Below are positions 6,458 through 36,243 of a stretch of DNA of 54,015 bases, piece by piece (positions within the stretch are counted from its first letter, which is position 1; each line of letters begins with the position of its first letter). Source of the stretch: Candidatus Moranbacteria bacterium GW2011_GWE2_35_2- (GTDB lineage Bacteria > Patescibacteriota > Minisyncoccia > Moranbacterales > UBA9337). Both the position numbers and the translations under genes were made by a program. A model generated the notes under the pieces. It saw only the letters and a program-made list of their open reading frames with translations. It was not told the origin of the DNA and made no database searches. The DNA is taken from assembly GCA_000990585.1 (NCBI GenBank), contig LBQD01000002.1, positions 1-54,015 of the forward strand, read 5' to 3'.

Positions 6458-6586
6458 TTACCGGATATAACATTATACAAAAAAATTAACAGATCTTACT
6501 TTTGGTCTGTTTTTTTGCTATTAACCAGAAAATGCGATAAAATAGAGATGTTATCACATATATTAAAATTATTTTTTATAAATTTT

Positions 6587-9500
6587 ATGGTTAAAGTTCT
6601 AAAAAAATCAATAGAAGAAGAAAAAGAAAAAGATTTAGCCACTCAAAAAGTGCTTGACGAAATGAAAAAGAAATCAGAAGAAGACCAGGCCGTACATCAG
6701 GCAAAACAAGTTGGTCTTCCTTATGCCGATCTTAATATTTTTCCTATTGATGAAAATGACATAAGAATAATTCCAGAAGAAGACGCTAAAAAACACCTGA
6801 TTGCTATTTTTAATAAATCAGGGAAAAAAATTCGTATCGGAATGGTTGATCCTAAAAATGATGCCGCTAAAAAATATATAGAAAATTTTAAAAATGATCA
6901 GGATTATTTTATAGAAATATACGTCATATCTCTTTCTTCTGCTAACCGAGTCTGGGAAAAATATAAAAAAATTTCTTTTTTGGAAAATCTGGATCTGCTT
7001 CGCATATCTCTAAATGGAGAAGATTTGGAAAAATTTGAAGAAAATTTTAGCGAACTCTTACAATTAAAAAATAAACTAACAAAAACTTCCACGACCGATA
7101 TTATCGATATAATAATGTCCGGTGCTATAAAAATGAAAGCTAGTGATGTTCACTTTGAACCGCAAGAGGCTGAGGTTCGTTTGCGGTATCGTATTGATGG
7201 AGTACTTCAAGATATTGGAAATTTTCCCCATAAAAACTATCAATCTATCATATCTCGCGTAAAAATGATGGGAGGAATGAAACTAAACATCCGTGATATT
7301 GCCCAAGACGGACATTTTCCTATTGATATCGACAATGGGAAAATAGACATTCGCGTTAATATAATTCCGGGAAATTACGGGGAAAGCATTGTAATGAGAA
7401 TTTTAAACCAAGCAAGTATTCTTTTGAGTATCGAAGACTTGGGGATGCGTGGACTTTCTTTCGAACAACTCAAAAAAGAAATTTCCAAACCCAACGGAAT
7501 GATTCTCACTACTGGACCGACCGGATCGGGAAAAACAACTACACTCTATGCAATTATTAATAAACTCAACAAATCTGACACAAAAATAATCACTATTGAA
7601 GATCCTGTTGAATACGAACTTAAAGGAATTTCTCAAACTCAGGTTGTCAAAAAAAAATACACCTTTGCCGAAGGATTAAGAGCTATCGTCCGTCAAGATC
7701 CGGATATTATTATGGTAGGTGAAATTCGCGATGAAGAAACTGCGGGAATAGCCGTAAACGCCGCTCTTACTGGACATTTGGTCTTATCAACATTGCACAC
7801 CAATAATGCTCCTGCTTCTATTCCAAGACTTGTTGAAATGGGAGTAAAATCATCCCTTATCCCTTCATCTGTAAATATTTTTATTGCGCAGCGTCTTTTG
7901 CGAAAACTGTGCCCTTACTGCAAAGAAAAATACAAGCCGGCAAAAGAAACCTTCGATTCAATAAAAAAAATGTTATCTATAATATCTCCGAAATCCAAGG
8001 TGGAAGCTTCTGTGAATGCGGATTTTCTCTATAGACCCAAAGGATGTCCGAAATGTCATCAGATCGGATATCAAGGAAGAATAGGAATATTTGAAGTGTT
8101 AACTATCAGTAAAAATGTTGAAAAATTAATTTATGAAGGCGCCAGTGAAAACGCTATTACTCAGGCGGCGCTGGAGGACGGCATGATCACAATGACACAA
8201 GATGGGATTCTGAAATCACTGGAAGGAATCGTTTCGATGGAAGAAGTTTGGAGAGTTACCGGACAAACAGATTTCTTGGAACAACTTTATGAAAATTTAA
8301 TGGATCAATCACTTTCCAGATCAATTCCTATTTCTGAAGAAGATTTAATTTTAGTATCAAAAAATAAAAATTCTTTTGAAAAAATCAGTTCTCTTTTGCA
8401 AAAAACCGCCCCGGAAAAACTAGTTGAAGTTATTTTTTCCAGCGCTCTTATCCTGCAAGCAGGAGATATTCATATCGAACCAAAAAAAGATGCTGTGAGT
8501 ATTCGCTTTCGTATAGATGGAATATTGCAAGAAATTGGAAATGTACCTCTTTCAACTTATCCGACATTGTTAGGTCGAATAAAATTACTCAGCGGACTAA
8601 AAACTGGAACAAGAGTCGGAGTAGCCGATAGCCGATTTAGTATTTCATTGGAAAAACCATTTGAAAACATTAGCCAAGAATCCACTGATGTTCGTGTTTC
8701 TATAATCACTGGAGGATTCGGAGAAACAGTTGTAATGAGATTACTGAATAAATCCGCCGTTTCTTTGGATATAGAAAATTTAGGAATCAGAAAAGAAAAT
8801 CTACAAAAAATAATTCACGAAGTCAGTAAGCCTAATGGTTTTTTTATTAACACCGGCCCTACAGGATCAGGAAAAACCACTACGCTCTACAGCATTTTAA
8901 GCAAGCTTAATAAATCTGCGGTAAAAATAATCACAGTTGAAGATCCGATTGAATATCAACTTGAAGGAATTCTACAAACTCAAACTAACAAAGAAGAAAA
9001 TTATGATTTCCCTACAGCGCTCAAATCTCTAATGCGCCAAAATCCGGATATTATTATGGTAGGTGAAATTCGCGACAATGATACAGCGAATATTGCACTG
9101 CAAGCTTCTTTAACGGGACATCTAGTCCTTTCAACATTGCACACAAATGACAGCGCTGGAACAATCACGCGATTACTAAATATGAACATACGTCCCGATG
9201 ATTTAGCTACCGCCTCCAATGCTTTTATGGCGCAAAGATTAGTACGCAAACTTTGTGATTGCAAAGAAGAATCTGCACCGACTGAAAAAGAAAAAAAAGA
9301 AATTGAAAACATTATCAATTCTATTTCAGAAAAATCCGGTATAAATAAGACAGACTATTCTGCTATGAAAATTTATAAACCAAAGGGTTGCGCTAAATGC
9401 AACAACATTGGTTATTCAGGAAGAACAACTGTCAGTGAAGTTCTTGTTATTGACCGCGATATTCAAGATCTTATCAATAAAAATGCTCTTTCCTCGGAAA

Positions 9501-9625
9501 TAAAAGAAAAAGCTATTGAAAATGGTATGATTACTATGCTTCAAGACGGAATATTAACCGCATTAGAAGGAAAAACTTCATTGGAAGAAGTCTGGAGAAC
9601 GATAGGAGAAGATGATGGAAAATAA
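6587..9625 (+). CDS. Type IV pilus/type II secretion assembly ATPase (PilB/GspE family) with two tandem ATPase modules
   Basis: Two copies each of D(V/I)H(F/I)EP, RIDG, GPTGSGKTT, EDP(V/I)EY, PDIIMVGEIRD, TGHLVLSTLHTN and Cys zinc motifs; ATG at 6587 preferred over the TTG at 6515. Confidence 0.92.
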   Translation: MVKVLKKSIEEEKEKDLATQKVLDEMKKKSEEDQAVHQAKQVGLPYADLNIFPIDENDIRIIPEEDAKKHLIAIFNKSGKKIRIGMVDPKNDAAKKYIENFKNDQDYFIEIYVISLSSANRVWEKYKKISFLENLDLLRISLNGEDLEKFEENFSELLQLKNKLTKTSTTDIIDIIMSGAIKMKASDVHFEPQEAEVRLRYRIDGVLQDIGNFPHKNYQSIISRVKMMGGMKLNIRDIAQDGHFPIDIDNGKIDIRVNIIPGNYGESIVMRILNQASILLSIEDLGMRGLSFEQLKKEISKPNGMILTTGPTGSGKTTTLYAIINKLNKSDTKIITIEDPVEYELKGISQTQVVKKKYTFAEGLRAIVRQDPDIIMVGEIRDEETAGIAVNAALTGHLVLSTLHTNNAPASIPRLVEMGVKSSLIPSSVNIFIAQRLLRKLCPYCKEKYKPAKETFDSIKKMLSIISPKSKVEASVNADFLYRPKGCPKCHQIGYQGRIGIFEVLTISKNVEKLIYEGASENAITQAALEDGMITMTQDGILKSLEGIVSMEEVWRVTGQTDFLEQLYENLMDQSLSRSIPISEEDLILVSKNKNSFEKISSLLQKTAPEKLVEVIFSSALILQAGDIHIEPKKDAVSIRFRIDGILQEIGNVPLSTYPTLLGRIKLLSGLKTGTRVGVADSRFSISLEKPFENISQESTDVRVSIITGGFGETVVMRLLNKSAVSLDIENLGIRKENLQKIIHEVSKPNGFFINTGPTGSGKTTTLYSILSKLNKSAVKIITVEDPIEYQLEGILQTQTNKEENYDFPTALKSLMRQNPDIIMVGEIRDNDTANIALQASLTGHLVLSTLHTNDSAGTITRLLNMNIRPDDLATASNAFMAQRLVRKLCDCKEESAPTEKEKKEIENIINSISEKSGINKTDYSAMKIYKPKGCAKCNNIGYSGRTTVSEVLVIDRDIQDLINKNALSSEIKEKAIENGMITMLQDGILTALEGKTSLEEVWRTIGEDDGK

Positions 9626-11887: not shown

Positions 11888-14467
11888 CTAAAAATTCACA
11901 GAAACACTTTTAGACTCCGTATCAATATTGCCATTTTTATCTTCCACTTTTGCCTCAATTTTAATTGTTGTATTGTTTTTTTCTGTTGGAATATTATATA
12001 CAAAACTCAAAGATTTATTACTAGTGGATTTCACTTCACTTCCATCAATATCTATTTTAAGTTTCTTTATTCCATAAGGCACATTGGCAGATACTGATAT
12101 TTTCAATTTAGACATATCCCCTTCGGAAATTGAAAGGCTGATATTTGGAAGATATTTTTCAAAATCATCCTCCTTGCACTCATTTTTGGGAATTTCACCT
12201 ATAATATATTTCTTAGTTTCTTTGTTATTTTCATACCAATTTTTCACTCCTTTTTCCCAGCGATTAAATTGCGGATCATCTTCGGGATTCTTAGGAAAAT
12301 CTCCCTGCGGATCATCACGCTTCACATACCACAAGATACTATGTGCATCGACAAAGTCTTTTTCTTTAATATCGCTATCTTTGCAATATTTATTTGCTAA
12401 ACAATATTCATCCTTTTTTCCTGGAATCTCACAAACTTTCACATTTTTATCCACTTCAATATCTCCCTTCAATATTCCCTTTTTAATATCTTTCAAAAAT
12501 TCCTCAGGTTTATATTCTGGAAATTTTTCAACATTATAATTTCCCAGCACTTGATCCATAAAACTTCTCCAAATCGGAGCCGCCACATAACTTCCATCTG
12601 CTCCTTTTATCATAGGAGAATTATCATTATTTCCCGCCCAAACCCCCACCGCCAAAGATGGCGCATATCCCATTGTCCAACCATCTCGCCATTCATTAGT
12701 GGTTCCGGTTTTTGCCGCTACAGGACGATTATCAAATCGGAGCGGATTATTTTCACCAAAAACTGGTGCCCTGAATTTATTATTTGAAATGACATAATCA
12801 AGCATTGCCACATATTTTTCATCCACCACTTTTTCACCTTCCGTATCTTTATATTCTTCTACAATATTTCCTTTACTATCTTCAATTCGTAAGATTGCAT
12901 TTTTCGATTTGCGAACCCCTCCGTTTGCAAGCGTAGAAAAAGCCGCTGTATGATCCAATAATTTAACCTCTCCTCCACCCAAAACCAAAGAAAGCCCGTA
13001 CCTATCAGGATAATTTAATCCGGTTATTCCTAATTTTTTCGCCATTTCAGTTGCTTCTTTTACTCCAACCAAATAAAGAGTTTTTACCGCAGGAATATTA
13101 AGCGACATTCCCAATGCGTCCTGCATTTGGAGCGGACCTCGAAAATTTCCATCATAATTTTGCGGAGTATATTCTTTATCTGTTCCCGTATCAAAATTAG
13201 TTTCTACATCAAAAAGGGTTGTTTCCGGAAAATATCCCTTAGAGAAAGCAGTCAGATACACATAAGGCTTGAATGATGACCCAGGCTGACGATCACGAAT
13301 AGCCACATTTACATTACCATCAAATTTGCAGGTCTTTCCGGTAATACATCCTTCCGGAAAAGATTTTCCGAAATAATCTTTTGATCCGACCATTGCTAAA
13401 ATTTGACCGGTTTTTGGATCTATCGCCACCAAAGACGCATTCGCCGCACCGTACTTTTCTTGATTACTTTGCGCGCCTTCCGCCACCACCTTCTCGGCTA
13501 TTTGTTGTTTATTCCAGTCTAAAGTTGTATATACCTTCAATCCATCCTGTTCCAATGATTGATCGCCATATTTTGATTCGAGATATTCTTTAATATACAT
13601 CACAAAGTGCGGCGCAGAAATATTTTCCCTATTCGGAGTAAGTTTAGCAAAAACATCCGTTTGTTTTGCTTGACCAGCTTGTTCTGCAGTTATATATCCA
13701 ATCGTAGTCATTCTATCCAATGCCAATTCTTGTCGAGATTTTAAAGCTTCAACATGTGATCCATATGGAGAATAATATGTCGGGGCGTTAGGAAGGGCTG
13801 CAAGCATCGCCGCTTCATCCAAAGAAAGTTCGCGAGCTGATTTTCCGAAAAATGTCTGCGCGGCTGATTCAACCCCATAAGCATTCGAACCGTAAGGAAT
13901 TTCATTAAGATACATTCCTAATATTTCATCTTTGGAAAATTTTTGTTCAATTTCAAGAGATAAAATAACTTCTTTGATTTTTCGCGTATAGGTTTTTTCG
14001 GTTGTCAAAATTGAATTTTTAACAAATTGCTGAGTAATTGTCGATCCTCCTTGCGCTTTTCCACGATGCAAAAAATCTTTGAGAGCACTGCGAGCGATTG
14101 AACTCAATTTTATCCCATAATGAGTATAAAAATCTTGATCCTCAAGAGAAATAGCGGCATATTTAATACTATCGGGCATCTCAGAAAAAGGAATCAGGGT
14201 TCTTTTTTCTTCTCCGTGCACGTCATACAAAAGATGTTCGCCGGTGCGATCATATATTTTTGTTGATTCCGCCACTACTCTTTTGTTTATTTTTCCCGGA
14301 TCCGGCAAATCTTTGGAATAATAAATAAAAACTCCCGCCACAAATAAAATACCGACGACACTAAGGATTAGACCGGTTTTCCAAAAAATTTTCCACCAAT
14401 CACGCCATTTACCGCTTCTTGCGTCAGAATCTTTTTTAAAATTGTTACTTGTAAAGATATTTCTCAT
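11888..14467 (-). CDS. Class A penicillin-binding protein (PBP1A family) with a C-terminal Ig-like extension
   Basis: Glycosyltransferase motifs EDQDFYTH, GGSTITQQ, RKIKE; transpeptidase motifs SSFK, SLN, KTGT. Confidence 0.95.
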   Translation of the reverse strand: MRNIFTSNNFKKDSDARSGKWRDWWKIFWKTGLILSVVGILFVAGVFIYYSKDLPDPGKINKRVVAESTKIYDRTGEHLLYDVHGEEKRTLIPFSEMPDSIKYAAISLEDQDFYTHYGIKLSSIARSALKDFLHRGKAQGGSTITQQFVKNSILTTEKTYTRKIKEVILSLEIEQKFSKDEILGMYLNEIPYGSNAYGVESAAQTFFGKSARELSLDEAAMLAALPNAPTYYSPYGSHVEALKSRQELALDRMTTIGYITAEQAGQAKQTDVFAKLTPNRENISAPHFVMYIKEYLESKYGDQSLEQDGLKVYTTLDWNKQQIAEKVVAEGAQSNQEKYGAANASLVAIDPKTGQILAMVGSKDYFGKSFPEGCITGKTCKFDGNVNVAIRDRQPGSSFKPYVYLTAFSKGYFPETTLFDVETNFDTGTDKEYTPQNYDGNFRGPLQMQDALGMSLNIPAVKTLYLVGVKEATEMAKKLGITGLNYPDRYGLSLVLGGGEVKLLDHTAAFSTLANGGVRKSKNAILRIEDSKGNIVEEYKDTEGEKVVDEKYVAMLDYVISNNKFRAPVFGENNPLRFDNRPVAAKTGTTNEWRDGWTMGYAPSLAVGVWAGNNDNSPMIKGADGSYVAAPIWRSFMDQVLGNYNVEKFPEYKPEEFLKDIKKGILKGDIEVDKNVKVCEIPGKKDEYCLANKYCKDSDIKEKDFVDAHSILWYVKRDDPQGDFPKNPEDDPQFNRWEKGVKNWYENNKETKKYIIGEIPKNECKEDDFEKYLPNISLSISEGDMSKLKISVSANVPYGIKKLKIDIDGSEVKSTSNKSLSFVYNIPTEKNNTTIKIEAKVEDKNGNIDTESKSVSVNF

Positions 14468-14748
14468 TGCCTATTATATACGTATTATTTGCTTTTTATA
14501 ATATCATTAGGTGCCCACAATGATAGCACAAAAAAGCTCTTCCAGCAATAATATCATTTTACCATATTCAAAACCCTTAGTAAAAGCAAAAAACAAACTC
14601 GCTATTGAGTCTGTTTTTCATCATTTTCTTTTATTTTATATCCATGCCGAATTTTTCAAAAATCATTTTCTATTAAAAGCTCGGGGATTATTTACGTTAA
14701 AAAAATAAATAAATTATTTAACAATTTTTTAAATTTATTCACAATAAA

Positions 14749-15756
14749 TTAAGAAAAAAGATAATTCATTAAATTTGGAATCAAATAAATTGATTCTCCT
14801 TGAGTCGGATTACCATGAAATTGAACGGAGGGAAATGTTCCGTTTATTTCTATGATAATACCATCATTTTCAGTTAAAGGTTTTCGTATGTCAGGAGATA
14901 TTATATCTATTCCCACTATAGGAAGACCCAGAGTAGAAACAATATCTTTCCCCATTTTTACAAAATAAGGATGAATTTCATTTGTTACATTTATATATTC
15001 TCCGCCATCAAATCCACTAAAACACAGTGGAATTTTTTTATCTTCTTCTAGTACAGAGTCAAGGTTGTAATTTTCGGAAGCCAGTAATCGCTCAGTTTTT
15101 TCTGATATACTGATTTTTTTAAGTCTTCCTCCTTTTTGTCTTTCTTTATTGATTTTATTTTCAGTTTTAATAAGCTCTCTAATTGTTTTTTTCCCGTTTC
15201 CGGTAATATAAGCTGGTAAATTTTTCGTTGCAGCATATGATCCATCTGCTATATAAGTTATTCTATAATAATCTCCGGGAATATATTTTTCTATCAAAAT
15301 TTTTTTATCAAACTTTTTAGCCACCTTAAATGAATCTACTAATAATTTTTTATTATTAATATTTATAGTTATTCCCTCCCCTTCTGCGGAGCCCAGTGGC
15401 TTCACTACAACAGGAAAAGAAATTTTTTTGATTGCATCGACTAACTCTTTTTCACTATAAATTATCATCCCATCCGCCACCGGATATTCAAGTTTTTTCA
15501 GAAATTCCTTCGCTAAATGTTTATTTTTTGCAATACTCACACCAATAGGATTAGTTTTTGATGTTAACGCTCTATTTATCCAAAAATAATTAGATTCTTT
15601 TTTAAATATAAATATATTCTTTTTATCAAAAACTCTGTATATATCTAATTTATTCTCTATCGCATATCGCAATATTTCCCTGGATGTTCCTTGACCCATT
15701 TTTTTAAAATCATCAACTCCCATTTTCTTCAAATTTTTTATTATAGATAATTCCAT
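14749..15756 (-). CDS. Stand-alone ATP-grasp ligase of the cyanophycin synthetase/GshAB type
   Basis: KNKHLAK, FPVVVKP..S.EGEGI, IEKYIPG..YR, PAYITGNGKKTIRELI, GIDII, IIEING; no Mur-ligase domain. Confidence 0.8.
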   Translation of the reverse strand: MELSIIKNLKKMGVDDFKKMGQGTSREILRYAIENKLDIYRVFDKKNIFIFKKESNYFWINRALTSKTNPIGVSIAKNKHLAKEFLKKLEYPVADGMIIYSEKELVDAIKKISFPVVVKPLGSAEGEGITININNKKLLVDSFKVAKKFDKKILIEKYIPGDYYRITYIADGSYAATKNLPAYITGNGKKTIRELIKTENKINKERQKGGRLKKISISEKTERLLASENYNLDSVLEEDKKIPLCFSGFDGGEYINVTNEIHPYFVKMGKDIVSTLGLPIVGIDIISPDIRKPLTENDGIIIEINGTFPSVQFHGNPTQGESIYLIPNLMNYLFS

Positions 15757-15779
15757 CTAAATTATTTTTTTAATATTAA

Positions 15780-17552
15780 TTATTTACCTATATATGGAGA
15801 ACTTGCCATTAGATACAGAACATTTCTATGTTCAGAGCCCGCAAAACTATTTCTAGCATCAGGTGACGTTTTTTTATTTAATGTATCAACAAGAAAATTT
15901 CCATCAAAAGAAAAAGATCTACCCGCCTCTTCAAAAATATTTTTTTCAGAGGAAGCACTATAATTACAAAGCTTGGCACAAACAAGAAACTCAAATTTAT
16001 TATCCAAAGAAATATCATCGTATTTTTCCATTATAAGTTCGTCCATAAAATCTAACATTTTTTTATAGATAGGAATTTCTTCTAAAGGTATTTCATGACT
16101 ATAAAAACCAGAAGCTCCTATTATACAGTGCGTATAGAAATATATCTGCAGGGTTAATGCTTGCTCCCCTCCTTCATCTTGATAAAATTTACCTATTTTA
16201 TAAAGTTTCTTAATATCAATAATACAGGAAGATCCCAAATATTCTCTTACTAAATAGAAATAATTTATGGCATGCGTCGAAAGAATTCTTAACGCTTCGT
16301 CGTCATTTTCCAGATCTGTTTTAAGTTGAAGTAAATCATTATCAGAAACAAGTTTACTAATTTCATTTTTTACGTCTTTCTCATATAAAGAAAGTGCAAA
16401 AAGATATTTGAACAAAATCCCGAGAAAATTTTCTAGTTTATTATATTTTTTAAAAATAACCATGCGCTCCTCTCTGGCCACCATTTTTTCTCCATGTTCA
16501 CGAGTTTTCAAAAAAATATTTCTAAGATTAGACTCTAGTTCATAATCACTTTTCCCAAGATAAAAACTTTTTAGTTTATCCAATCCGGCTCTATAAAATT
16601 CTTCTTTATTCCAAAGATACATCCTGGAAAAATAATGGAATTTTTTATCCCATAAAAATTCTACATTTGAGTTATAAAAATCTAAAACACATTTTCTTGT
16701 GTCATTTTTTCCTCGTTTCATTAACTCTTGACAATGCAATAAAATTTCTTTTGCAACATCAACCCCTGTTGCAGCTTGAAATCCTTTCCACTGAGGAACA
16801 GTATTCACTTCCAAGAAAAAATATCTTTTCTGATTCTCATCATATATTACATCAACACCGCATAACGTAAGCTTAAAAATAGATGCCACAGTAGATCCTA
16901 TATGATGAAGTGGTTTTAAAATATCTGGATCGGTAATGTGCAAAGCGCTTCCTCCTTTAGAAATATTGTTGAGAAATCCCCCATCTTTTGCAATTCTCTT
17001 CATTACGCCAAGAACTTTTCCTCCCATCATAAAAACACGATAATCTCCTGAATTTTTAATAAAATTTTGATATACATTTCCTTTTGTAGAGACTATCTTT
17101 TTTTCAAGCTCATCTTTATTCCCGATAAGCTCCACGCCTTCTCCTTTCGATCCCTTAACTGGTTTCTGTATGAAGGGAAATTTAATTCTTTCATTAATAA
17201 TAGCCCTTAGCAAATCCTCTTTGGTTTCAAATAAAAACGAATCTATAGTATTAACAGTATTGGTACTTTTTCTCACATATTCTTGTTGAAAAAACTTATT
17301 TGTAGCGTTAGGAAAAATTGCCAAGCATTTATTTATAAGAATTCGAGATTTCATAATTTCTTCCATCACAGACTTTCTTTTAGAACCAGATCCGAGAGAT
17401 GAAGATCTCCACAATATTATATCACCTAAATTCTCTATTTCTTTCTTACTTGAAATATCTCTGACTTCCAAATCAAAAGAAAAATCAGCTGCAGCTTCTT
17501 TGAGTTTTTCAACTTGCCATTCAGTTGTTTTACATATAATAGATAGTTTCAT
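15780..17552 (-). CDS. RimK-like ATP-grasp ligase fused to a C-terminal DUF3541-like helical domain
   Basis: N-half: FPFIQKPVKGSKGEGV, QNFI..DYRV, NNISKGG, GVDVI, LEVNTVP; C-half: FHYFSRMYLW, YFYTHCII, EHRNVL. Confidence 0.8.
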   Translation of the reverse strand: MKLSIICKTTEWQVEKLKEAAADFSFDLEVRDISSKKEIENLGDIILWRSSSLGSGSKRKSVMEEIMKSRILINKCLAIFPNATNKFFQQEYVRKSTNTVNTIDSFLFETKEDLLRAIINERIKFPFIQKPVKGSKGEGVELIGNKDELEKKIVSTKGNVYQNFIKNSGDYRVFMMGGKVLGVMKRIAKDGGFLNNISKGGSALHITDPDILKPLHHIGSTVASIFKLTLCGVDVIYDENQKRYFFLEVNTVPQWKGFQAATGVDVAKEILLHCQELMKRGKNDTRKCVLDFYNSNVEFLWDKKFHYFSRMYLWNKEEFYRAGLDKLKSFYLGKSDYELESNLRNIFLKTREHGEKMVAREERMVIFKKYNKLENFLGILFKYLFALSLYEKDVKNEISKLVSDNDLLQLKTDLENDDEALRILSTHAINYFYLVREYLGSSCIIDIKKLYKIGKFYQDEGGEQALTLQIYFYTHCIIGASGFYSHEIPLEEIPIYKKMLDFMDELIMEKYDDISLDNKFEFLVCAKLCNYSASSEKNIFEEAGRSFSFDGNFLVDTLNKKTSPDARNSFAGSEHRNVLYLMASSPYIGK

Positions 17553-17568
17553 TATTTTTTAAAAATTA

Positions 17569-18975
17569 TTATTTATTAACATCCACCAAAAATCTTCCTA
17601 GATTCCTTTTTCCAATAATAGCTTGAAATTTTAATTCCTCTCTTTTTATTACATTAACACTTGCCGGGATTATTAAACTATCCATAATAAAATTTATTTT
17701 TATTGCTGGTCTTATAGAAACACCGTGAGAAGAATAAACAATATTGATATTGTCTAAATCAGAATGACCTGTTAAATATTTTTTTCGAAGTTCCTTCTCT
17801 ATTTTCGCAGCATCTTCTCGGGAAAAATTCTGTGGAAATTCTATTTTTTCAAAATAATTTAAAGCTTCTTCAAATCCCAGTTCTCTAGCCAGCTCTACAT
17901 CAATCGATGTCGACATAGCCCCGGTATCAATTTTCGCTTCGACTTCGACTTCTTTTCCATTTTTTCCAATGAGTTTTACTTTTTCCACGGTGCCGATCAC
18001 TCTTCGCCCGGAAATTTCTTCCAATTCCTCTTCAATCTCCCCTCCAAACAAATCCATTCCCACGCGTACTCCGCGCTTGATCGTTTTTATTTTAAGCCCC
18101 TCCACTCTTTCCAATCTTCCACGCAATCCCGCCAGATTGGCAATTTGAATGGAAAGTCCGGCGCGCGCATTAATCTCCACAAAAACCGGGCCTTTTTCCT
18201 TGTCAATCGCCACATCCGCGCCCAAAAAACCCAATCCGGAAATTTCTTGCGCTTTTACCGCCAATTCCAAGATATCTTTCCAGTAAGGAATTTTGATTCC
18301 GGAAAGCAAGAGTCTTGTTCCGGGAACATATTCAACAATTTTTGATTTTCCCTGGACGGCAGTAGTGGTGACTCCTGTTGCCAAATCAATTCCCAACCCA
18401 ATTCCTCCTTGTTGCAGATTGGCTTTTCCGCCGGATTCTTTTGTCGGGAGTCTAAGCATTGCCATTACTGGAACCTTGTTAAAAACAATCACGCGAATAT
18501 CGGGAATTCCCTTATAAGCATAAGTTTTAAATAATTTTAATAGCCTCAATCTTTCTTCAAAAAATGCAATGTCTCCTTCTCCGGAAATTGAAAAGTTTCC
18601 ATCCAAGATATTACGAATATGGTTTTTAATATCTTCAATGGTAATAATCGAGCCATCAGCTTTTACCCATGCATCATCCCATCCTTTTTTTCTTCCATAG
18701 ACGACCAGAATTCCTTCCCCCCCTAACCCTCTATTGGGTTTGAGAGCAAACCCAGATGGCAATTTACTCCAATCGAAATTGTCTAATTCTTTATGTGAAG
18801 AAATTTTTGCCAACAAATCAGGCACAGGAATTCCGCCTTTTTTCAAAACTCTTTTACTCAAAATTTTGTCGTCCGCCAATCTAATAGCTTTTTTTCTATT
18901 GTTAGGACGGATGTATTTGAGATTTCGGGAATTCATCCCTAAAATTTTGCGACTATTTTTTATAAATCTAAACAT
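17569..18975 (-). CDS. Alpha-L-glutamate ligase-like ATP-grasp (ATPgrasp_ST type) fused to a retropepsin-like (RimB-type) aspartic peptidase
   Basis: LGMNSRN, ADDK, KPNRGLGGEGI, GIPDIRVI, AMLRLPT.ES.GKANL.QG, EINARAGLSIQIAN; C-terminal AKIDTGAMSTSID and IIGKRNL. Confidence 0.88.
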   Translation of the reverse strand: MFRFIKNSRKILGMNSRNLKYIRPNNRKKAIRLADDKILSKRVLKKGGIPVPDLLAKISSHKELDNFDWSKLPSGFALKPNRGLGGEGILVVYGRKKGWDDAWVKADGSIITIEDIKNHIRNILDGNFSISGEGDIAFFEERLRLLKLFKTYAYKGIPDIRVIVFNKVPVMAMLRLPTKESGGKANLQQGGIGLGIDLATGVTTTAVQGKSKIVEYVPGTRLLLSGIKIPYWKDILELAVKAQEISGLGFLGADVAIDKEKGPVFVEINARAGLSIQIANLAGLRGRLERVEGLKIKTIKRGVRVGMDLFGGEIEEELEEISGRRVIGTVEKVKLIGKNGKEVEVEAKIDTGAMSTSIDVELARELGFEEALNYFEKIEFPQNFSREDAAKIEKELRKKYLTGHSDLDNINIVYSSHGVSIRPAIKINFIMDSLIIPASVNVIKREELKFQAIIGKRNLGRFLVDVNK

Positions 18976-19048
18976 GAATCATTAAGCATAGAACACACGA
19001 CATAAAAACATAAAAAATACGTTTCGTTATGTATTACTATATTGAAAA

Positions 19049-19717
19049 TTACATCCCCTTAAACACTTCTCGAAATCGATAGTACTCGCTAAATCGCAAT
19101 CCAGTCCATTTACCAAGAAAAAAATTAATCGGAATTGTCAAAAGAACTACCCATGGATGATATATAATCATATTGATGATTATATTCAGTCCGACCAAAT
19201 AGAAACAGACCAGGGAAATCATCAATGTTTCCAAGGCTAAAAGCACAGCTGTTCGATTTCCCTTCTCAATCTGCGTTGCCACAAATTTCTCCACAATCGC
19301 AATCATAATTAGAAGTGGAAAAATAGAAACAGAGGCCAATCCTGTTCGTTGCAAAGATCCTCCGAAAACTAAAATTGCCAAAATTGCAAATGAAACGATT
19401 GTAAGTGTTATTGCCACACGAGGAAGATACAATAAGCGCAATTTTTTAAGTAAATAACGCGCAATCATCCCAGCTATAATAACGCTTATAAAAATTATCG
19501 TTCCATATTTTACTCCGGAAAATCCATTATTATTATTGATTCTCATCGCCATAAAAGCCAACGTAACAATCATTGGAGTATAAATTCCAAAAGCTTTTAT
19601 CCCGAAAACCTGGCGAAAAAAAGCAATTATAGTGGCGATTATCGGAAACATCAAAATCAATATAACAGTCTCCAACGGAACGCCTTGATGAACAAAATAG
19701 TTTATTATCGGATGCAT
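19049..19717 (-). CDS. Multi-pass membrane protein of the 7TM_transglut type (membrane domain only)
   Basis: FFRQVFGIKAFGIYTP, LLYLPR, FPLLIM, GKWTGLRFSEYYRFR; sits directly upstream of the ATP-grasp gene as expected for this family. Confidence 0.85.
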   Translation of the reverse strand: MHPIINYFVHQGVPLETVILILMFPIIATIIAFFRQVFGIKAFGIYTPMIVTLAFMAMRINNNNGFSGVKYGTIIFISVIIAGMIARYLLKKLRLLYLPRVAITLTIVSFAILAILVFGGSLQRTGLASVSIFPLLIMIAIVEKFVATQIEKGNRTAVLLALETLMISLVCFYLVGLNIIINMIIYHPWVVLLTIPINFFLGKWTGLRFSEYYRFREVFKGM

Positions 19718-19817: not shown

Positions 19818-20303
19818 TTAAAAATTATTCATTTTTCGACTATTAAGATGGCAGATAGCGATGGCGATAGCATCGGCAGTGTCGTCCGGCTTAGGGATTT
19901 CTTTTAATTTCAAAATACTTTTCACCATAATCTGGATTTGTTTTTTTTCCGCCCGCCCGTATCCCGTGAGCGCCTGTTTTACTTGAAGCGGAGTATATTC
20001 AAAAATTTTCAATCCCATTTTTTCCAATGCTAACAATATTCCTCCACGAGACTGACTCACTTTCATTACCGTTTTAATATTTTTAAAAAAAAACAAATCT
20101 TCTACCACCCCTTCAGTCGGACTATATTTCCGAATAATGTTTTCAATATCATCTGCCACTTCCTTGATTCTTTCAGACGTACTGCGTTTTGGCGAAGTGG
20201 AAATATGACCGTATGCAATCGGAACTATTTTTCCATCATCCTCTTCTAAAATCGCCCATCCAGTTGTTGCCGTCCCAGGATCTATGCCTAAAATGCGTAA
20301 CAT
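19818..20303 (-). CDS. ruvC: Holliday junction endodeoxyribonuclease RuvC
   Basis: ILGIDPG, EDLFF, YTPLQVKQALTGYGRAEK, PDDTADAIAIAICH. Confidence 0.96.
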   Translation of the reverse strand: MLRILGIDPGTATTGWAILEEDDGKIVPIAYGHISTSPKRSTSERIKEVADDIENIIRKYSPTEGVVEDLFFFKNIKTVMKVSQSRGGILLALEKMGLKIFEYTPLQVKQALTGYGRAEKKQIQIMVKSILKLKEIPKPDDTADAIAIAICHLNSRKMNNF

Positions 20304-20305
20304 TA

Positions 20306-20333
20306 AATTTCTAATTTCTAATTTCTAATTTCT
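20306..20333. repeat. Tandem heptamer (AATTTCT)x4
   Basis: Four perfect copies directly upstream of the ruvC start; a related degenerate array lies at about 19723-19752. Confidence 0.8.
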
Positions 20334-20390
20334 AAATAATTTCAAAATTAAAAAATCAAAACTTATTTAAAAATTACAAAACTCAAAATT

Positions 20391-21110
20391 TTATGTGATG
20401 TTATCGTATATTTCTTGCACATCATCATTTTCATCCAATTGTTCAAATAATTTTTCATAATCCAATTTTGTGTTTTCATCCAATTCAACTTTTTGCAACG
20501 CGTCATAGACCAATTCGGCGTTTTCCACGGAAATTCCGACTTTTTCCAAATTTTCTTTGACCGCTTTCAATTCAACGGCTTTAGTATAAATCGTCAATAC
20601 GTTGTCCCAATAAATCGTATCTTCTGCTCCGGCCTCAATCGCTTTCATTTCCATTTCATCCAAATTTTCCGAATTGGCGGAAATATTAATATTTCCCACT
20701 AATCTGAAAGAATGCATTACTCCGCCAGCGCTAGCCATTTTTCCGCCGCTTTTTGTGATAATATTTTTTATTTCCCCTAATGTTCGATTTTTGTTGTCAG
20801 TAGCAGTTTTAATCAACATCGCCACTCCGCCCGGACCAAAAGCCTCATATATTATTTCTTCGATTTCCGCTCCGTCCTTAAGCTCTCCGGTTCCCTTTTT
20901 GATTGCCCGTTCAATATTATCTTTGGGCATATTCACCCGCCTTGCCTGTTCAACAGCAAATTTGAGTTTCATATTGGATTCAGAATTGCCACCGCCTTCT
21001 TTAGCGGAAAGGGAAATCAAGCGGCTGATTTTCGTAAAAGCATTTGCCCGCTTGGCATCTTGTGCACCTTTTCGATGTTTTATTCCCGACCATTTGTTGT
21101 GTCCAGACAT
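20391..21110 (-). CDS. yebC: YebC/PmpR family protein
   Basis: MSGHNKWSGIKHRK, NMPKDNIERAI, YEAFGPGG, TDNKNRT, DDVQEIYDN. Confidence 0.95.
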   Translation of the reverse strand: MSGHNKWSGIKHRKGAQDAKRANAFTKISRLISLSAKEGGGNSESNMKLKFAVEQARRVNMPKDNIERAIKKGTGELKDGAEIEEIIYEAFGPGGVAMLIKTATDNKNRTLGEIKNIITKSGGKMASAGGVMHSFRLVGNINISANSENLDEMEMKAIEAGAEDTIYWDNVLTIYTKAVELKAVKENLEKVGISVENAELVYDALQKVELDENTKLDYEKLFEQLDENDDVQEIYDNIT

Positions 21111-21207
21111 AAGCATTATGAAACATAAACCTCATAGTATAAACAAAATATCTTCTGCTATGTGTTTGCATTGTATGTTTTATATTTTCATCCTACCATC
21201 TTTGTCT

Positions 21208-21957
21208 TTATTTTTCAAGGCTTTTTCCTTTTTCCCACGCCAATTCGAAAAGCGGTTTCATCGATCGCACCAACTCTTCCGATTCGATCACTACGATAAA
21301 AGGATTATCTTCCAGCGAAGTAATTGCTAATTTATTATCATAAATTGTAAAGTCCATATGCGAATCCTTGAGCTCAGGTAAAATCCGCACCGTTTGATTA
21401 ACCGCCATAAATTTTTTCGCCAATTCAATTTCATACGGGCTATCCGAAATCAAATGGCGGAAACCTGATTTAATGATTCCTTTTCGGGCTTTTTTTATCC
21501 ATTCATCAATTTTTCCCGAAAATCGGTCGTCAATCCTTTGATAAGAAGAAATAAAAAAAGCCTCTTTTGCGTTGTTCATTTCTCCATCCCAAATACGGAG
21601 GATTCCTTCTTTAGTATCATAATACCTGATTTTCGGTTTCTTGCCGCTTTTATTTCCCAAAGTCCGCAAAATCGGCAACATTTCGGAAAAATTCCGAGTA
21701 ATCCCCCGCAACTGCCCCAAAATAACCAAGGGATCGGTGGCTTGATATGTGTTAATTTTTCGCCCCAAAAGCTCACTCACATATCCCCGCTTGATCAATC
21801 CCTCCAAAAGCACATAAATTATCGGCCGCTTCAAATCGGAAATCTTGGCAATCTCCGTTACATTCCCCTGTCCCAATTCAAGCAAAGCCAAATACACCCG
21901 CGCCTCCTTGCCGGTAAATCCCGATTCTTCAAGTAATTTTATCAAATCTAAATCCAT
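21208..21957 (-). CDS. TrmB family transcriptional regulator
   Basis: GFTGKEARVYLALLELG winged HTH, RPIIYVLLEGL, C-terminal IYDNKLAI...FELAWE. Confidence 0.9.
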   Translation of the reverse strand: MDLDLIKLLEESGFTGKEARVYLALLELGQGNVTEIAKISDLKRPIIYVLLEGLIKRGYVSELLGRKINTYQATDPLVILGQLRGITRNFSEMLPILRTLGNKSGKKPKIRYYDTKEGILRIWDGEMNNAKEAFFISSYQRIDDRFSGKIDEWIKKARKGIIKSGFRHLISDSPYEIELAKKFMAVNQTVRILPELKDSHMDFTIYDNKLAITSLEDNPFIVVIESEELVRSMKPLFELAWEKGKSLEK

Positions 21958-23128: not shown

Positions 23129-25111
23129 TTAAATGAATAATGAATTCAGGAAAGTGTTTATTTTTTGCAGTAGCTGCTCGAGGAATTTTTTGGCGTAATG
23201 CTCAGAAAAGGCTGTTTTGGCGGTAAAGAAATATTTTCCATTTTCTTGGCGAATGGAAAAATTTTGAATTTTGTCTATATTGAAATCTTCAACCGCTTTT
23301 GAAAGCTTTCGGTGCATCTCCGGACTAATTTCGATTTCGATCGGTTTTTGAGTGATTTTTCCGGCATAAACACTGCTACTGTCTTCATCATTTGTCATTT
23401 TTTGCCCATCATTTTCAGCAATCGGAATTATTGAAACGCTTCCACTACTTTCAGTGGTTTGCGTATTTTTGCTATTTACAGAATTTTTATCATCTTCAAT
23501 TTCATCAACAATCCACTCCCATTTCTTTCCTTTTTCTTTTTGCAAAATACTATTGTTTTTGATGGATTCTTTTTCTTTGTATTTCAAGGAATATGCAACC
23601 TTTCCATCTGGATATCGAAGTTCAATGTAAGCCTCTTTATTTCCAAGAGAAAAATACGAATCTTTTCTTGTGATTCTTCTCTCACCTCCCGATTTTATTT
23701 TAATTGAGTTGTAAATCGGATGATTAACAAGCTTATCCTTTGATGCTCCGCTTGCCACGCTCCATCCTTTCAAATTTACTGTCTTTTTTGAATCATTTTT
23801 CACCGTTATATATTCATTTTCACTGTCCAATCCGGAAGGATTTGGCATAATTTCCACGATTTTCACCTCGCGGCGCGGATATTTTTCAACATTGATTGCA
23901 AAACTTCTTACTATATCCTCGCTTCCGTCAAAAACTTTCACGCTAACAAAATAATTTCCCTCTTTTTCGTATTTGTGCCTAGTTTTTTCCAAATAGCTTT
24001 TGTGTCCATCTCCGAAATCCCAAGCTATTTTCAACTTGTCTTTATCTTTATCTTTTGCCTCCACTTCAAAATCCGCATAAATATTCTTATAAACATCTTC
24101 ATCAATTTTTAATTTTACTTCTGGAAGATTGTTAAATTTATTTTCTTCTCCTGGGGTCAAAAATTTACTCTGCCGCCATTTTTTTCCATCAAAATTCCAT
24201 GAAATGTTTTTATTTGATCCTAAATATTTCATCTTTGAAACTTCTTTTCCATTTGGATTGAAAAGATAAACAGATTCATTTCCAGAATTATTCAATGAAA
24301 ATTTGAAAAATTTTTCGTCATCTTCTTTTTCTTTTTTATAAACAACAAAATAATCGCCAGCTTTTATGATTGAATCATTCGGGAAAACATATTTTCCCGT
24401 TTTTGATTCATCTTTTAATATCCAACCAGAAAGATCCTCATTTTTCTTGGAAAAATTATACAATTCAATATATTCTGTTTTTCCTTTTTCCGGATTAGGA
24501 AAAATCTCGTTAATTTCAATCTCCGAAAAATATTTTTTTGGCTCAGATTTTTTCTCCCCCGGCGTTCCGCCAAGAATCCAACTTTTTTTCCATCTATTAC
24601 CCTTTTCATCCCATTCAATACTATATCCTTTCTCACTATTTTCCGTGCTTTCATATAAAATTTCAGTCTCCCAATTTTTACAACCTTCAAAACTTATCTT
24701 TATCTCTCCATCTTTTTTTAGAGAAAAACTTGAATCTACGATTTTTCCCTCATATTTACATTTTTCCTTTCCTTTGCAAAAATTTTCTTCAAATTGTTTT
24801 TTATCACTAACTACAACAACATATTCATTAGGATCTATTTCCAAATCATCATTGGATTTATGACAAACACCACTGTTTTCAACTATTTTTAAATTTTTCT
24901 TTTCTACTATAATTTTCTTGTCAGAATTATTATAAATTTCAAACCAATCTCCTTTCTGCCCTCCATTAATCGGATCAAACATTATTTCTGTAATAATAAG
25001 TCCTTCATCTTCTGCTTTTATTTTTTGCACACATAAAAAACAAAAAGCGCTAAAAATAAAAATTAGCGCTCCTGTTTTTAAAAATACTTTTTTCTTTTTA
25101 GAAAAAATCAT
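23129..25111 (-). CDS. Secreted protein with three lamin-tail (LTD)-like domains and a PKD domain
   Basis: Signal peptide; three I(T/N/V)EI(M/F)(F/P)(D/N)P...E.Y/KN motifs; WDFGDG..H.YEKEGNY PKD motif. Confidence 0.85.
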   Translation of the reverse strand: MIFSKKKKVFLKTGALIFIFSAFCFLCVQKIKAEDEGLIITEIMFDPINGGQKGDWFEIYNNSDKKIIVEKKNLKIVENSGVCHKSNDDLEIDPNEYVVVVSDKKQFEENFCKGKEKCKYEGKIVDSSFSLKKDGEIKISFEGCKNWETEILYESTENSEKGYSIEWDEKGNRWKKSWILGGTPGEKKSEPKKYFSEIEINEIFPNPEKGKTEYIELYNFSKKNEDLSGWILKDESKTGKYVFPNDSIIKAGDYFVVYKKEKEDDEKFFKFSLNNSGNESVYLFNPNGKEVSKMKYLGSNKNISWNFDGKKWRQSKFLTPGEENKFNNLPEVKLKIDEDVYKNIYADFEVEAKDKDKDKLKIAWDFGDGHKSYLEKTRHKYEKEGNYFVSVKVFDGSEDIVRSFAINVEKYPRREVKIVEIMPNPSGLDSENEYITVKNDSKKTVNLKGWSVASGASKDKLVNHPIYNSIKIKSGGERRITRKDSYFSLGNKEAYIELRYPDGKVAYSLKYKEKESIKNNSILQKEKGKKWEWIVDEIEDDKNSVNSKNTQTTESSGSVSIIPIAENDGQKMTNDEDSSSVYAGKITQKPIEIEISPEMHRKLSKAVEDFNIDKIQNFSIRQENGKYFFTAKTAFSEHYAKKFLEQLLQKINTFLNSLFI

Positions 25112-25124
25112 CTCTCAAAAAAGA

Positions 25125-25535
25125 TTAGACTATTTTTCTTTGGGAAGAAGTTATTCTCAATATCTCGTTAACGACGCCAACCAATTGTTTTGGCGTAATA
25201 TTTGCTTTAACAAAATATTTTTTCGCCCCCAAAGCCAGTGCGGCATCTCTATCACCGTTTTGATTGAGATTGGTCAAAATAATAATCGGAATTTTCGCAT
25301 ATTCATCATTGAAATGAATTTTTTCCAATAAATCAAATCCGTCCATTTTCGGCATTATAATATCCGAAATTATCAAATCAACAGCATTAAAATTATTTTT
25401 AATATGTTGCCACGCCTCTTTTCCATCTTTGGCTATTGCCACATCAAAATTTTCTCTTTTGAAAGCTTGCGTATATATCTCTAAAAGATCATGATCATCT
25501 TCGACAATCAAAATCGTGCGTTTTTTTGTCTGCAT
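25125..25535 (-). CDS. Single-domain response regulator (receiver only)
   Basis: ILIVEDD, DLIISDIIMPKMDG, ILTN, YFVK; start at MQTKK preferred. Confidence 0.9.
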   Translation of the reverse strand: MQTKKRTILIVEDDHDLLEIYTQAFKRENFDVAIAKDGKEAWQHIKNNFNAVDLIISDIIMPKMDGFDLLEKIHFNDEYAKIPIIILTNLNQNGDRDAALALGAKKYFVKANITPKQLVGVVNEILRITSSQRKIV

Positions 25536-25569
25536 AATTTCTTTTTTATTGAAGTTTTCAGGCAAAATA

Positions 25570-32487: not shown

Positions 32488-32778
32488 TTATTTTTTTATC
32501 ACAATCTCAATTATTTCTTTTCCTCCCAATTCCCGGTTTATTTTTTCGGTTATTCTTTTTCTATCCAAAAAAACTTCGCTCGCCCATGCCGAGCTTTGTG
32601 TTTTGACAAACAATTTTCCATTTTTAAAATAATCCGGTCTAACCCTGACACTTCCAATCAAGCCATATTCACTTTTTATAATTTTATCAAAAATATAAAA
32701 AACAGTCTTATCATCCAAAACAATATCCGTAACAACCTTCTTGTTTCTTTTCTTAATAAGACTGCTTAAATCTTTCAT
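32488..32778 (-). CDS. DciA (DUF721) family helicase-loader protein
   Basis: KNGKLFVKTQSSAWASEV...KINRELG..I.EI; located directly downstream of dnaN. Confidence 0.75.
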   Translation of the reverse strand: MKDLSSLIKKRNKKVVTDIVLDDKTVFYIFDKIIKSEYGLIGSVRVRPDYFKNGKLFVKTQSSAWASEVFLDRKRITEKINRELGGKEIIEIVIKK

Positions 32779-32789
32779 TTATATATATA

Positions 32790-33935: not shown

Positions 33936-33946
33936 ATTTTTGAAAT

Positions 33947-35341: not shown

Positions 35342-35655
35342 TTTGATTTATAAGATTATATAAAAAAATTATTCCGACATACTCTGTTCAAAAGCCTTCT
35401 TTTATCTCCGGTAGCAAAAATTATATCACAATAGAGTTATCCACACCACATTTTATGTGAATAATTATGTGGATAAATTGTGGGAAACTTTTATCTATCC
35501 CCTATTTTAATACTCAAACTACTATGCTTAGAAAAATATTTTAGTAATATTCATCAGTATATTGACCTTTTTCATTTATATTGATACACTACATATTAGT
35601 CATAAACATAATCCACAGTCATATTGTTAATAGACTGTTTTAATAAATTAAAAAA
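35342..35655. other. Replication origin region (oriC) with a DnaA-box cluster
   Basis: TTATCCACA 35437-35445, TGTGAATAA 35456-35464, TGTGGATAA 35468-35476, TGTGGGAAA 35479-35487, TAATCCACA 35609-35617; AT-rich; lies between dnaA and rpmH. Confidence 0.85.
35562..35590 (+). promoter_or_regulatory. rpmH operon promoter
   Basis: TTGACC-17 bp-TACACT with extended -10 TG. Confidence 0.65.
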
Positions 35656-35796
35656 ATGTCCACAAAAAGAACTTACCAACCAAAAAAACTGCGCCGAAAA
35701 AGAAGACATGGCTTCACAAAAAGAATGTCTACTAAAAACGGGCAGGAAGTAATCAAAAGAAGACGCCAAAAAGGAAGAAAAAAACTTACCGCGTAG
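35656..35796 (+). CDS. rpmH: 50S ribosomal protein L34 (46 aa, missing from the ORF track)
   Basis: Translates to [46 protein letters not shown]. Confidence 0.97.
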
Positions 35797-35892
35797 ATTT
35801 AATAAGTAATAAATTTTCATCGAATTTACAAAATTATCTATATTTTTAATTTAAAAGAATAAATTGTAAATTGAAAATTGAGAATCCTCAAA

Positions 35893-36243
35893 ATGCTTCC
35901 AAAGAAGAATCGTCTAACAAAAAAAGGGGATTTTGAAAGAGTTTCCTCTAAGGGAAACTATTTTTCTTTTCAAAATATCTCCCTCAAAACGACTTCCAAC
36001 AATTCTTCTTTCCCCCGAATAGGATTCTCGATTGGGAAAAAAATTTCAGTTAAAGCAATAAATCGCAATCAAATCAAAAGAGTACTTCGCGAATCTTTCC
36101 AAGAACACCTACCGAAGATTGCCGAAGGTGTTGATATTGTGGTATATTTCAAAAAAGATAATCAATCTGAAAAATTAATTGATTCAAAAAAAACCGCTGC
36201 GCGAGTAGAAAAATTGCTGAAAAAAGCAAACCTAATACAATAA
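35893..36243 (+). CDS. rnpA: Ribonuclease P protein component
   Basis: MLPKKNRL..K.DF, RIGFSIGKK...AINRNQIKRVLRE. Confidence 0.93.
   Translation: MLPKKNRLTKKGDFERVSSKGNYFSFQNISLKTTSNNSSFPRIGFSIGKKISVKAINRNQIKRVLRESFQEHLPKIAEGVDIVVYFKKDNQSEKLIDSKKTAARVEKLLKKANLIQ

Follow-up and report, generated by a model that had tools for sequence, protein, structure and literature searches.

The 54,015-nucleotide (nt) stretch of DNA analyzed here, hereafter the window, is positions 1 to 54,015 of contig LBQD01000002.1 of Candidatus Moranbacteria bacterium GW2011_GWE2_35_2-, a member of the candidate phyla radiation (CPR, or Patescibacteria). It contains a four-gene cluster at 14749–19717 encoding a seven-transmembrane (7TM) protein (g1), an ATP-grasp ligase fused to a retropepsin-like peptidase (g2), a RimK-type ligase fused to an (alpha/alpha)6-toroid domain (g3), and a third ATP-grasp ligase (g4) (Table 1). 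Our analyses incline us, with modest confidence, to the interpretation that g1 and g2 are the Patescibacterial form of the RloABC system of Pseudomonas, and that the locus is one functional unit, a fused, template-free peptide ligase-and-trimmer system of the Rlo/RimK kind. Based on the linkage of the genes, their fusions and the intact catalytic sites, we also hold it to be somewhat probable that the genes serve a single pathway in which an acidic peptide is assembled and trimmed on the cytoplasmic side of the membrane. The E-values of the domain matches and the recurrence of the arrangement in other genomes are far beyond chance. The preliminary description of this region had reported four tightly spaced, co-oriented genes, and this was borne out by the open reading frame (ORF) list, in which four minus-strand ORFs completely occupy the span, with gaps of 73 nt (g1-g2), 16 nt (g2-g3) and 23 nt (g3-g4). 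Its domain calls were also correct, as determined by Pfam, NCBIfam and, for DUF3541, hhalign. Its interpretation as an assembly line for a mixed or branched peptide polymer or a protein tag was supported in part only.

The rloABC genes form an operon in Pseudomonas aeruginosa (Lormand et al., mBio 2025, PMC12239564). In that system, Glu-rich peptides are cut by RloA, a secreted retropepsin; RloB joins an inactive transglutaminase to 7TM helices; and RloC is a cytoplasmic ATP-grasp protein with 24% identity to RimK. The same source describes RimK as making poly-alpha-glutamate and both RloA and RimB as cutting polyglutamate, and it reports that a triple rloA mutant is rescued by deletion of rloB or rloC, that the phenotypes concern hypo-osmotic tolerance, biofilm and antibiotic tolerance, and that 96% of RloB matches are in Proteobacteria. 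The window's operon has the same kinds of component, namely a 7TM_transglut-type protein, a RimK-related ATP-grasp ligase and a PF05618 peptidase with a DTG motif, and the g2-family profile matches 2pma, which is named RloA-like in PMC12239564. There are also clear differences: g1 lacks the periplasmic inactive transglutaminase domain of RloB; the g2 peptidase lacks a signal peptide and forms part of one protein with a cytoplasmic ligase, so that it would be intracellular like RimB, whereas RloA is secreted; the window adds two further ligases and the toroid domain; and its host is a monoderm-like CPR cell, whereas RloB matches are mainly proteobacterial. Literature searches found no paper on these clusters in Patescibacteria. 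The word "undescribed" in the preliminary description is only partly apt, as the core trio corresponds to the RloABC kind. Such membrane protein/ligase/peptidase trios were reportedly first predicted by Iyer et al. in 2009.

The identification of g2 as a fusion of an ATP-grasp ligase and a retropepsin was supported by several lines of profile evidence. Its ligase domain was matched by ATPgrasp_ST (PF14397) at E 2.1e-69 (234 bits, residues 17–292), and residues 8–293 scored 294 bits against TIGR02291, for which the cut-off is 314.2. The peptidase part scored 27.3 bits against PF05618 (Zn_protease; cut-off 27), and the C-terminus of the protein matched NCBIfam RloA1 and RloA3 weakly (RloA3 E 3.1e-4), well under their cut-offs. 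A g2-family profile from 55 homologs matched RimK structures and the PF05618-type structures 9g59_A (E 6.5e-8), 9g58_A and 2pma_A. The metal-ligand positions D254 and E267-x-N269 were invariant or almost so in 55 homologs, and the DTG motif (residues 350–352 in g2) was retained in 99 of the 102 ligase-retropepsin fusions of the phylum sample described below. Judged from the sequences, the catalytic motifs are intact in all three ligases of the cluster and in the peptidase. An N-terminal hydrophobic segment is absent from g2, g3 and g4, so all three should be cytoplasmic.

The membrane protein g1 was identified as 7TM_transglut (PF14402; E 2.2e-26, 93.3 bits against a cut-off of 25). Its match to NCBIfam RloB covers only the C-terminal 7TM part of that model (positions 305–507 of 508; 72.8 bits, cut-off 900), and the g1 sequence begins at the first membrane helix, with the transglutaminase domain absent. 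Such short forms made up 48 of the 119 7TM proteins of the phylum sample. The AlphaFold model of g1 has seven long helices (predicted local distance difference test score, pLDDT, 93.8), and the K/R-rich loop 87–100 together with the C-terminal tail indicates an N-out/C-in topology. Because loop 1 and a C-terminal "GLR..EY.RFR" tail contain the residues that do not vary among 55 homologs, the conserved surface of g1 appears to face the cytoplasm, the side being deduced from this topology. Foldseek with the g1 model returned no match at E ≤ 1e-3. A fold assignment by VIA-align was dropped, as the best scores (Z 10.0 to the helical part of Cas10d, and Z 8–9 to RnfE, RnfA and NqrE) are in the range expected of helical bundles. 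Two long CPR 7TM proteins (~520 residues; L037:10570-12129 and L077:10227-11792) have N-terminal PKD domains, and neither had a transglutaminase Pfam match at E ≤ 1e-3.

The recurrence of the cluster was studied in a phylum sample of 401 genomes drawn evenly, in which relatives of g2 were counted at E ≤ 1e-20 and the ±9 kb around the best match were taken per genome. The ORFs were classified with profiles made from the window's proteins and iterated on these loci, and the class labels held when checked on 77 proteins with NCBIfam and on 29 more with Pfam (proteins labeled CPH match CphA at ~160–475, those labeled RIMK match rimK_fam, and those labeled QEGLA match Pfam MATCAP). Relatives of g2 were found in 127 of the 401 genomes and 95 of the 320 genera. 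A 7TM gene was directly upstream and on the same strand in 119 of these 127 genomes, and in four of the other eight the ligase is at the start of the fetched contig. The ligase was fused to a retropepsin in 114 genomes and to a MATCAP-type domain in 23, and in two it was fused to neither. The ligase was separated from the 7TM gene by a median of 1 nt and from the first extra ligase by a median of 8.5 nt (n = 56), and the median between successive ligases was 6 nt (n = 68); these values are approximate, since starts were set by a longest-ORF rule.

The extra ligases are a widespread part of this arrangement. At least one additional ATP-grasp ligase was present in the co-oriented run downstream of the core pair in 63 of the 127 genomes, representing 25 of 45 families; their number ranged from one to five, with at least two in 47 genomes and at least three in 27. 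Both RimK-class and CphA-class ligases occurred in the downstream run of 30 genomes from 12 families. Extra ligase domains were concentrated in the run (140) compared with elsewhere within ±9 kb (17). Genes resembling g4 (E ≤ 1e-25) were found in 61 of the 401 genomes, and a hand comparison placed 50 of the 78 matches outside the window's own genome (in 34 of 60 genomes, with genome sizes of ~1 Mb) within ~6 kb of the g2 relative and on its contig; the other 28 were not so placed, 17 of them being in genomes that lack a g2 match at this threshold. The preliminary description had named a lack of synteny between the downstream ligases and the upstream pair in other genomes as evidence that would refute it. 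The counts show that extra ligases are syntenic with the pair, and all four components recur together in 8 of the 80 toroid loci considered below. These findings also bear on whether the four genes are simply neighbors with separate functions that came to lie side by side in a compact genome. In favor of that explanation, the add-on genes vary from lineage to lineage, and the g4 genes of close relatives are not orthologs. It is nevertheless disfavored, and we regard it as highly improbable in view of the placement of extra ligases just downstream of the core pair in so many families, the adjacency of most g4-like genes to that pair, and the fusion of RimK, toroid and retropepsin in one chain.

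The N-terminal domain of g3 was matched by RimK (PF08443) at E 4.8e-25 over residues 100–271 (88.7 bits, cut-off 21), and the protein scored 117 bits against rimK_fam (TIGR00768), whose cut-off is 143.4. The catalytic residues K130, R172, D234, E248 and N250 are all in place; among 156 RimK-class domains K130, R172 and D234 were kept in 156 or 155, E248 in 154 and N250 in 137. The likeness to the RimK/RimB system comprises a RimK-type domain with intact K, R, D and E-x-N and a cytoplasmic retropepsin encoded next to it in g2, whereas the 305-residue toroid domain of g3 is absent from RimK and the ribosomal protein S6 of the window's genome has no Glu-Glu end. The graspetide maturase model TIGR04187 matched g3 weakly (16.2 bits where the cut-off is 350; E 0.0048). 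The gaps between g1 and g4 leave no room for a graspetide precursor gene, and no systematic small-ORF search was made.

The C-terminal domain of g3 is, on sequence comparison, probably a divergent DUF3541 domain. Its direct match to PF12060 is below threshold (16.5–18.2 bits, cut-off 28.2). However, hhalign of the domain against a true DUF3541 protein (a member scoring E 5.8e-46) gave a probability of 96% and E 4.7e-9 over 269 columns, and PF12060 matched 22 of 30 members of the toroid family. The predicted model is all-helical (pLDDT 94.8), and VIA-align gave 8car_A as the best structural match (Z 12.1, root-mean-square deviation 4.5, 263 residues aligned), with further rows for LanC-like proteins, terpene cyclases, GH88/105 and AGE epimerases at Z 9–12 and deviations above 4. 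For the model, these rows indicate no more than the fold class, an (alpha/alpha)6 toroid. Foldseek found no match for the domain at E ≤ 1e-3, and a sequence search of the PDB with g3 matched the ATP-grasp part only and left the toroid domain unmatched. Across 80 sequences, ten residues (H306, R310, R363, Y471, T474, H475, Y484, D517, E521 and H575) do not vary. Because only one cysteine is nearly invariant, a zinc site of the LanC type is unlikely. The family had 695 representatives at E ≤ 1e-3 among 1.84 billion.

The neighborhood of the toroid domain was counted in 80 loci from one-genome-per-species contigs. Among 247 proteins of the family, 130 are RimK-toroid fusions, 17 carry RimK, toroid and retropepsin in a single chain, and 100 are stand-alone. 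RimK was fused to the toroid in 32 of the 80 loci, and fused or at most two genes away in 73; a retropepsin was fused or at most four genes away in 58. Within four genes of the toroid, a 7TM gene was present in 23 loci and an ATPgrasp_ST gene in 26. Among the eight loci with all four components, of which one (L164) is apparently the same contig as the genome G376, L173 has the window's gene order, and in the remaining seven the CphA-like gene precedes the RimK-toroid gene. A different, conserved cassette was observed in records labeled Saccharibacteria (L184-L241), in the order RimK (~301 residues) < retropepsin (~161 residues) < stand-alone DUF3541-like toroid (~312 residues) > RimK (~300 residues), with no 7TM or ATPgrasp_ST gene.

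Pfam gave generic ATP-grasp matches only for g4. The protein aligned with positions 155–471 of the 862 of the cyanophycin synthetase model TIGR02068 (E 1.3e-70), and with PDB entries 7lgn and 7wac (E ~1e-38) over the whole G domain. It thus resembles the CphA1 G domain and the GshF ATP-grasp module, with the catalytic residues kept; it differs from the three-domain N-G-M protein CphA1 in lacking the N and M domains. To map residues, the HMMER alignment was indexed by hand against those of TeCphA1 given in PMC9427784, in which E215, H267, R323, N394, S396, G456 and R458 bind the beta-Asp-Arg primer and aspartate. In TeCphA1 numbering, g4 keeps five of five ATP, Mg and acyl-phosphate residues (K220, K261, R309, D431 and E450) and none of the seven substrate contacts (E215 to S, H267 to E, R323 to N, N394 unaligned, S396 to F, G456 to S and R458 to Q). 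The label "CphA/GshAB-type" in the preliminary description is accordingly right as a fold class, while the aspartate- and primer-binding residues of CphA1 are absent. In a MAFFT alignment of 88 CPR g4-type domains, whose loop columns are possibly imprecise, the catalytic positions were invariant in 88 of 88 and the pocket positions varied.

These results are important for the suggestion that the cluster makes an amino-acid storage polymer, a polyglutamate or cyanophycin-like reserve built from scavenged amino acids and released by the peptidase. Most amino acids are not made by CPR cells, which counts for this suggestion, as does the fact that g4 is closest to cyanophycin synthetase G domains. 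Full-length CphA-like genes are also found in the same islands of L048 and L154, and a preprint (bioRxiv 10.64898/2026.09.16.751625) describes cyanophycin synthetase genes in 5 of the 21 genomes that represent a single genus of Saccharimonadia. We nevertheless consider storage unlikely: g4 has lost every one of the CphA1 primer and aspartate contacts, the profiles detected no M domain of the CphA type close to the cluster, and a reserve would leave the constant membrane protein unexplained. In the whole genome the profiles identified only a MurF-like housekeeping set in place of such an M domain (cyanophycinase was not sought) and one other ATP-grasp gene, which is Ddl-like, and no "BC-like" ligase.

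Some CPR loci share the 7TM and ATPgrasp_ST core and the variable ligase islands, but differ from the window in having a fused MATCAP-type (QEGLA) carboxypeptidase, an often decayed DTG motif (kept in 4 of 12 ligase-retropepsin-MATCAP triple fusions) and a 7TM protein ending in -EE, none of which is found in the window. The C-terminus of the 7TM protein was observed to track the type of trimming domain (loci L034-L160), ending in D or E in 10 of 10 proteins beside ligase-MATCAP fusions (mostly -EE), 5 of 11 beside ligase-retropepsin-MATCAP fusions and 11 of 96 beside ligase-retropepsin fusions. An alternative function is the tagging of protein tails, in which residues would be added to the C-terminal tail of the 7TM protein or of S6 and removed by the peptidase, as in the tubulin tyrosination cycle. 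The acidic ends of the MATCAP-fused subtype speak for tagging, and E. coli RimK is described as glutamylating the -EE end of S6 (PMC12239564). For the window's own locus, however, tagging seems quite doubtful: g1 ends in -FKGM, acidic ends are infrequent in the ligase-retropepsin subtype to which it belongs, the S6 of this genome (191 residues) ends in -NEILNI, and a profile search of the genome found no MATCAP-type gene.

Downstream of g4 is a PBP1A gene (14467..11888), 281 nt away, and PBP1A genes occupy this downstream position in 23 of the 127 genomes, from four families. This raises the alternative that the ligases amidate an envelope precursor. Amino acids would then be attached to a carboxylate either on a cell-wall precursor (the stem or bridge of peptidoglycan) or on a surface glycopolymer kept at the membrane by the 7TM protein, with the peptidase in an editing role. 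The D-aspartate ligases of Gram-positive cell walls have an ATP-grasp fold, which is in keeping with this alternative. PBP1A genes are also found in 19 of the 80 toroid loci, and MurF-like ligases, GT2 and GT4 glycosyltransferases and a GalT-like gene occur in the runs of other lineages. Furthermore, PMC12239564 reports cell-shape, beta-lactam and hypo-osmotic defects in Pseudomonas rlo mutants, and a response of Vibrio rlo genes to the cell-wall regulator VxrAB. We judge amidation to be rather unlikely all the same. A terminator-like hairpin lies between g4 and the PBP1A gene, the gap between them is the largest of the 23 measured, 19 of the 23 cases come from one family, and neighboring genes are weak evidence in genomes as compact as those of CPR. 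In addition, an endopeptidase specific for Glu-rich sequences is easier to reconcile with a peptide chain than with the addition of one residue. The hairpin that follows g4, together with the linkage and the fusions, supports the interpretation of the locus as one functional unit.

Under the favored interpretation of an acidic peptide ligase-and-trimmer system, g1 would present its conserved cytoplasmic face, formed by loop 1 and the C-terminal tail, as the place where the soluble enzymes work. The ATP-grasp domain of g2 would convert a carboxylate to an acyl phosphate and then add amino acids, most likely glutamate, by which a short acidic alpha-peptide would be started or extended on an acceptor. 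Further glutamate may then be attached by the RimK-type domain of g3, whose DUF3541 toroid would hold the chain or alter it chemically. Since the specificity pocket of g4 is unlike that of CphA, we propose that g4 would attach a residue of another kind. The intracellular retropepsin of g2 would cut Glu-rich stretches and thereby limit or recycle the chain.

Several observations weigh against this interpretation. The core pair is without an extra ligase in its run in 64 of the 127 genomes, so g3 and g4 are add-ons that could serve other ends. In 34 of the 80 toroid loci, mostly those of the Saccharibacteria cassette, a retropepsin is nearby or fused, and the neighborhood up to four genes away contains neither a 7TM nor an ATPgrasp_ST gene. 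The likeness of g2 to RloC was judged from domain models and a published description; moreover, g2 falls just under the curated cut-off of TIGR02291 and g3 under that of rimK_fam. Part of the synteny may be mere conserved gene order, since YebC-RuvC upstream and PBP1A downstream are conserved neighbors as well. The history of g4 is also different from that of its neighbors. The locus L173 holds the best relatives of g1, g2 and g3 (61, 69 and 57% identity), while the best matches of g4, at only 35% identity, belong to other families, and g4 is 29% identical to the gene in the same slot in G376. A FastTree phylogeny of the 88 domains grouped g4 with L066, L048 and L049 (support 0.97), far from the same-slot genes of the closest relatives, as judged from one tree with a midpoint root. 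Based on the low identity and the tree position, the slot has been kept and its occupant exchanged, and these genes are not orthologs.

Approximately one third of the sampled Patescibacteria devote 3–8 kb of a 1-Mb genome to this system, which suggests that it likely matters for their envelope or host-associated life. In Pseudomonas, Rlo affects antibiotic tolerance, biofilm formation and cell shape, and the CPR versions are natural experiments on Rlo, with a peptidase-ligase fusion, a dispensable outer domain, and accessory ligases in which catalysis is conserved and the pockets vary. They also offer small soluble proteins and testable predictions of which residues are joined, and the analysis associates DUF3541, an orphan domain, with retropepsins and ligases of the RimK type. 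We can speculate further, on what we consider improbable ground, that the islands are a third template-free route to defined peptides, one in which membrane-docked ATP-grasp ligases of exchangeable specificity would each perform a single step, in a manner comparable to the Mur ligase pathway. The DUF3541 toroid would then be a peptide epimerase and the product a protease-resistant acidic peptide with D-residues delivered to the CPR envelope. If this speculation is correct, it would provide a function for DUF3541 and a hint to what Rlo systems make. One lead in this direction is that a protein atlas places clusters of DUF6895 (PF21836) nearest to the toroid by features (score 0.96, 225 of 256 features in common), and a DUF6895 protein is called a lasso-peptide epimerase in the title of a 2026 ACS Catalysis paper; this is a lead and not a result. 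No HMMER link between the toroid and DUF6895 was present among the 25 families listed of the 34 matched, nor was one seen in the representative search, which covers the best 150 of its matches.

Table 1. Genes, domains and signals of the four-gene cluster (window coordinates).
Feature	Coordinates	Strand	Size or residues	Description or basis
g1	19717..19049	-	222 aa	Short RloB-like 7TM membrane protein without extracytoplasmic domain
g2	18975..17569	-	468 aa	Fusion of ATPgrasp_ST/TIGR02291-type ligase and retropepsin-like aspartic peptidase
g2 ATP-grasp domain	18100..18927	-	residues 17-292	PF14397
g2 retropepsin domain	17575..18000	-	residues 326-467	PF05618; D350-T351-G352 at 17920-17928
g3	17552..15780	-	590 aa	RimK-type ligase with predicted divergent DUF3541 domain
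g3 RimK-type ATP-grasp domain	16713..17552	-	residues 1-280	PF08443, TIGR00768
g3 C-terminal domain	15783..16697	-	residues 286-590	Predicted (alpha/alpha)6 toroid, divergent DUF3541; model and hhalign
g4	15756..14749	-	335 aa	Stand-alone ATP-grasp ligase resembling the cyanophycin synthetase G domain
Terminator-like hairpin	14587..14620	-	14-pair stem, T-run	~130 nt past the g4 stop, ahead of the PBP1A gene

The genome that holds the window (G000) consists of 923,070 bases in 6 contigs and is 96.55% complete, and the records of its closest relatives carry the labels Moranbacteria/Moraniibacteriota, Paceibacteria or Minisyncoccota. Terminator-like sites numbered 7 in the region compared with 3.1 ± 1.9 in shuffles, and a promoter-like site with a TG extension lies between the hairpin and the PBP1A gene; both kinds of site are consensus matches only, and promoter-like sites were not enriched over shuffles (31 versus 28.4 ± 6.5). 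No tRNA genes or Rfam matches were found in the window.

Upstream of g1 are genes for RuvC, YebC and a TrmB-type regulator, with YebC and RuvC (19818-21116) just upstream of the 7TM gene. A co-oriented gene of 145–210 residues occupies the YebC/RuvC position in 55 of the 127 genomes, and this gene order therefore looks old within the phylum. Other genes inside the ligase islands of the sample (L066:11604-13442; L037:5371-6108; L038:13631-14656) encode an FGase-type (N-formylglutamate amidohydrolase) protein, an Amidohydro_2 protein and GH130-like mannoside phosphorylases.

Elsewhere in the window, a 1036-residue protein (6515-9625, plus strand) has two T2SSE (type II/IV secretion ATPase) stretches and is a tandem-fused ATPase. 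A 2282-residue protein (23129-32418, minus strand) with FN3 and purple-acid-phosphatase-N-like repeats adjoins a stand-alone response regulator and a 660-residue protein with LTD and PKD domains. The genes for DciA, DnaN, DnaA, RnpA and YidC at 32488-36969 mark the chromosomal origin region, through which the cumulative GC skew continues to fall (2-kb resolution). The minus-strand segment 46042-53640 encodes a TraG-like P-loop protein (51148-52953) among five large ORFs without a Pfam match, one of 936 residues, and this region may be a secretion or transfer module. Lastly, the 54 kb contain three TrmB-family regulators on the minus strand (21208-21957, 39435-40214 and 40436-41176), one of them two genes upstream of RuvC.

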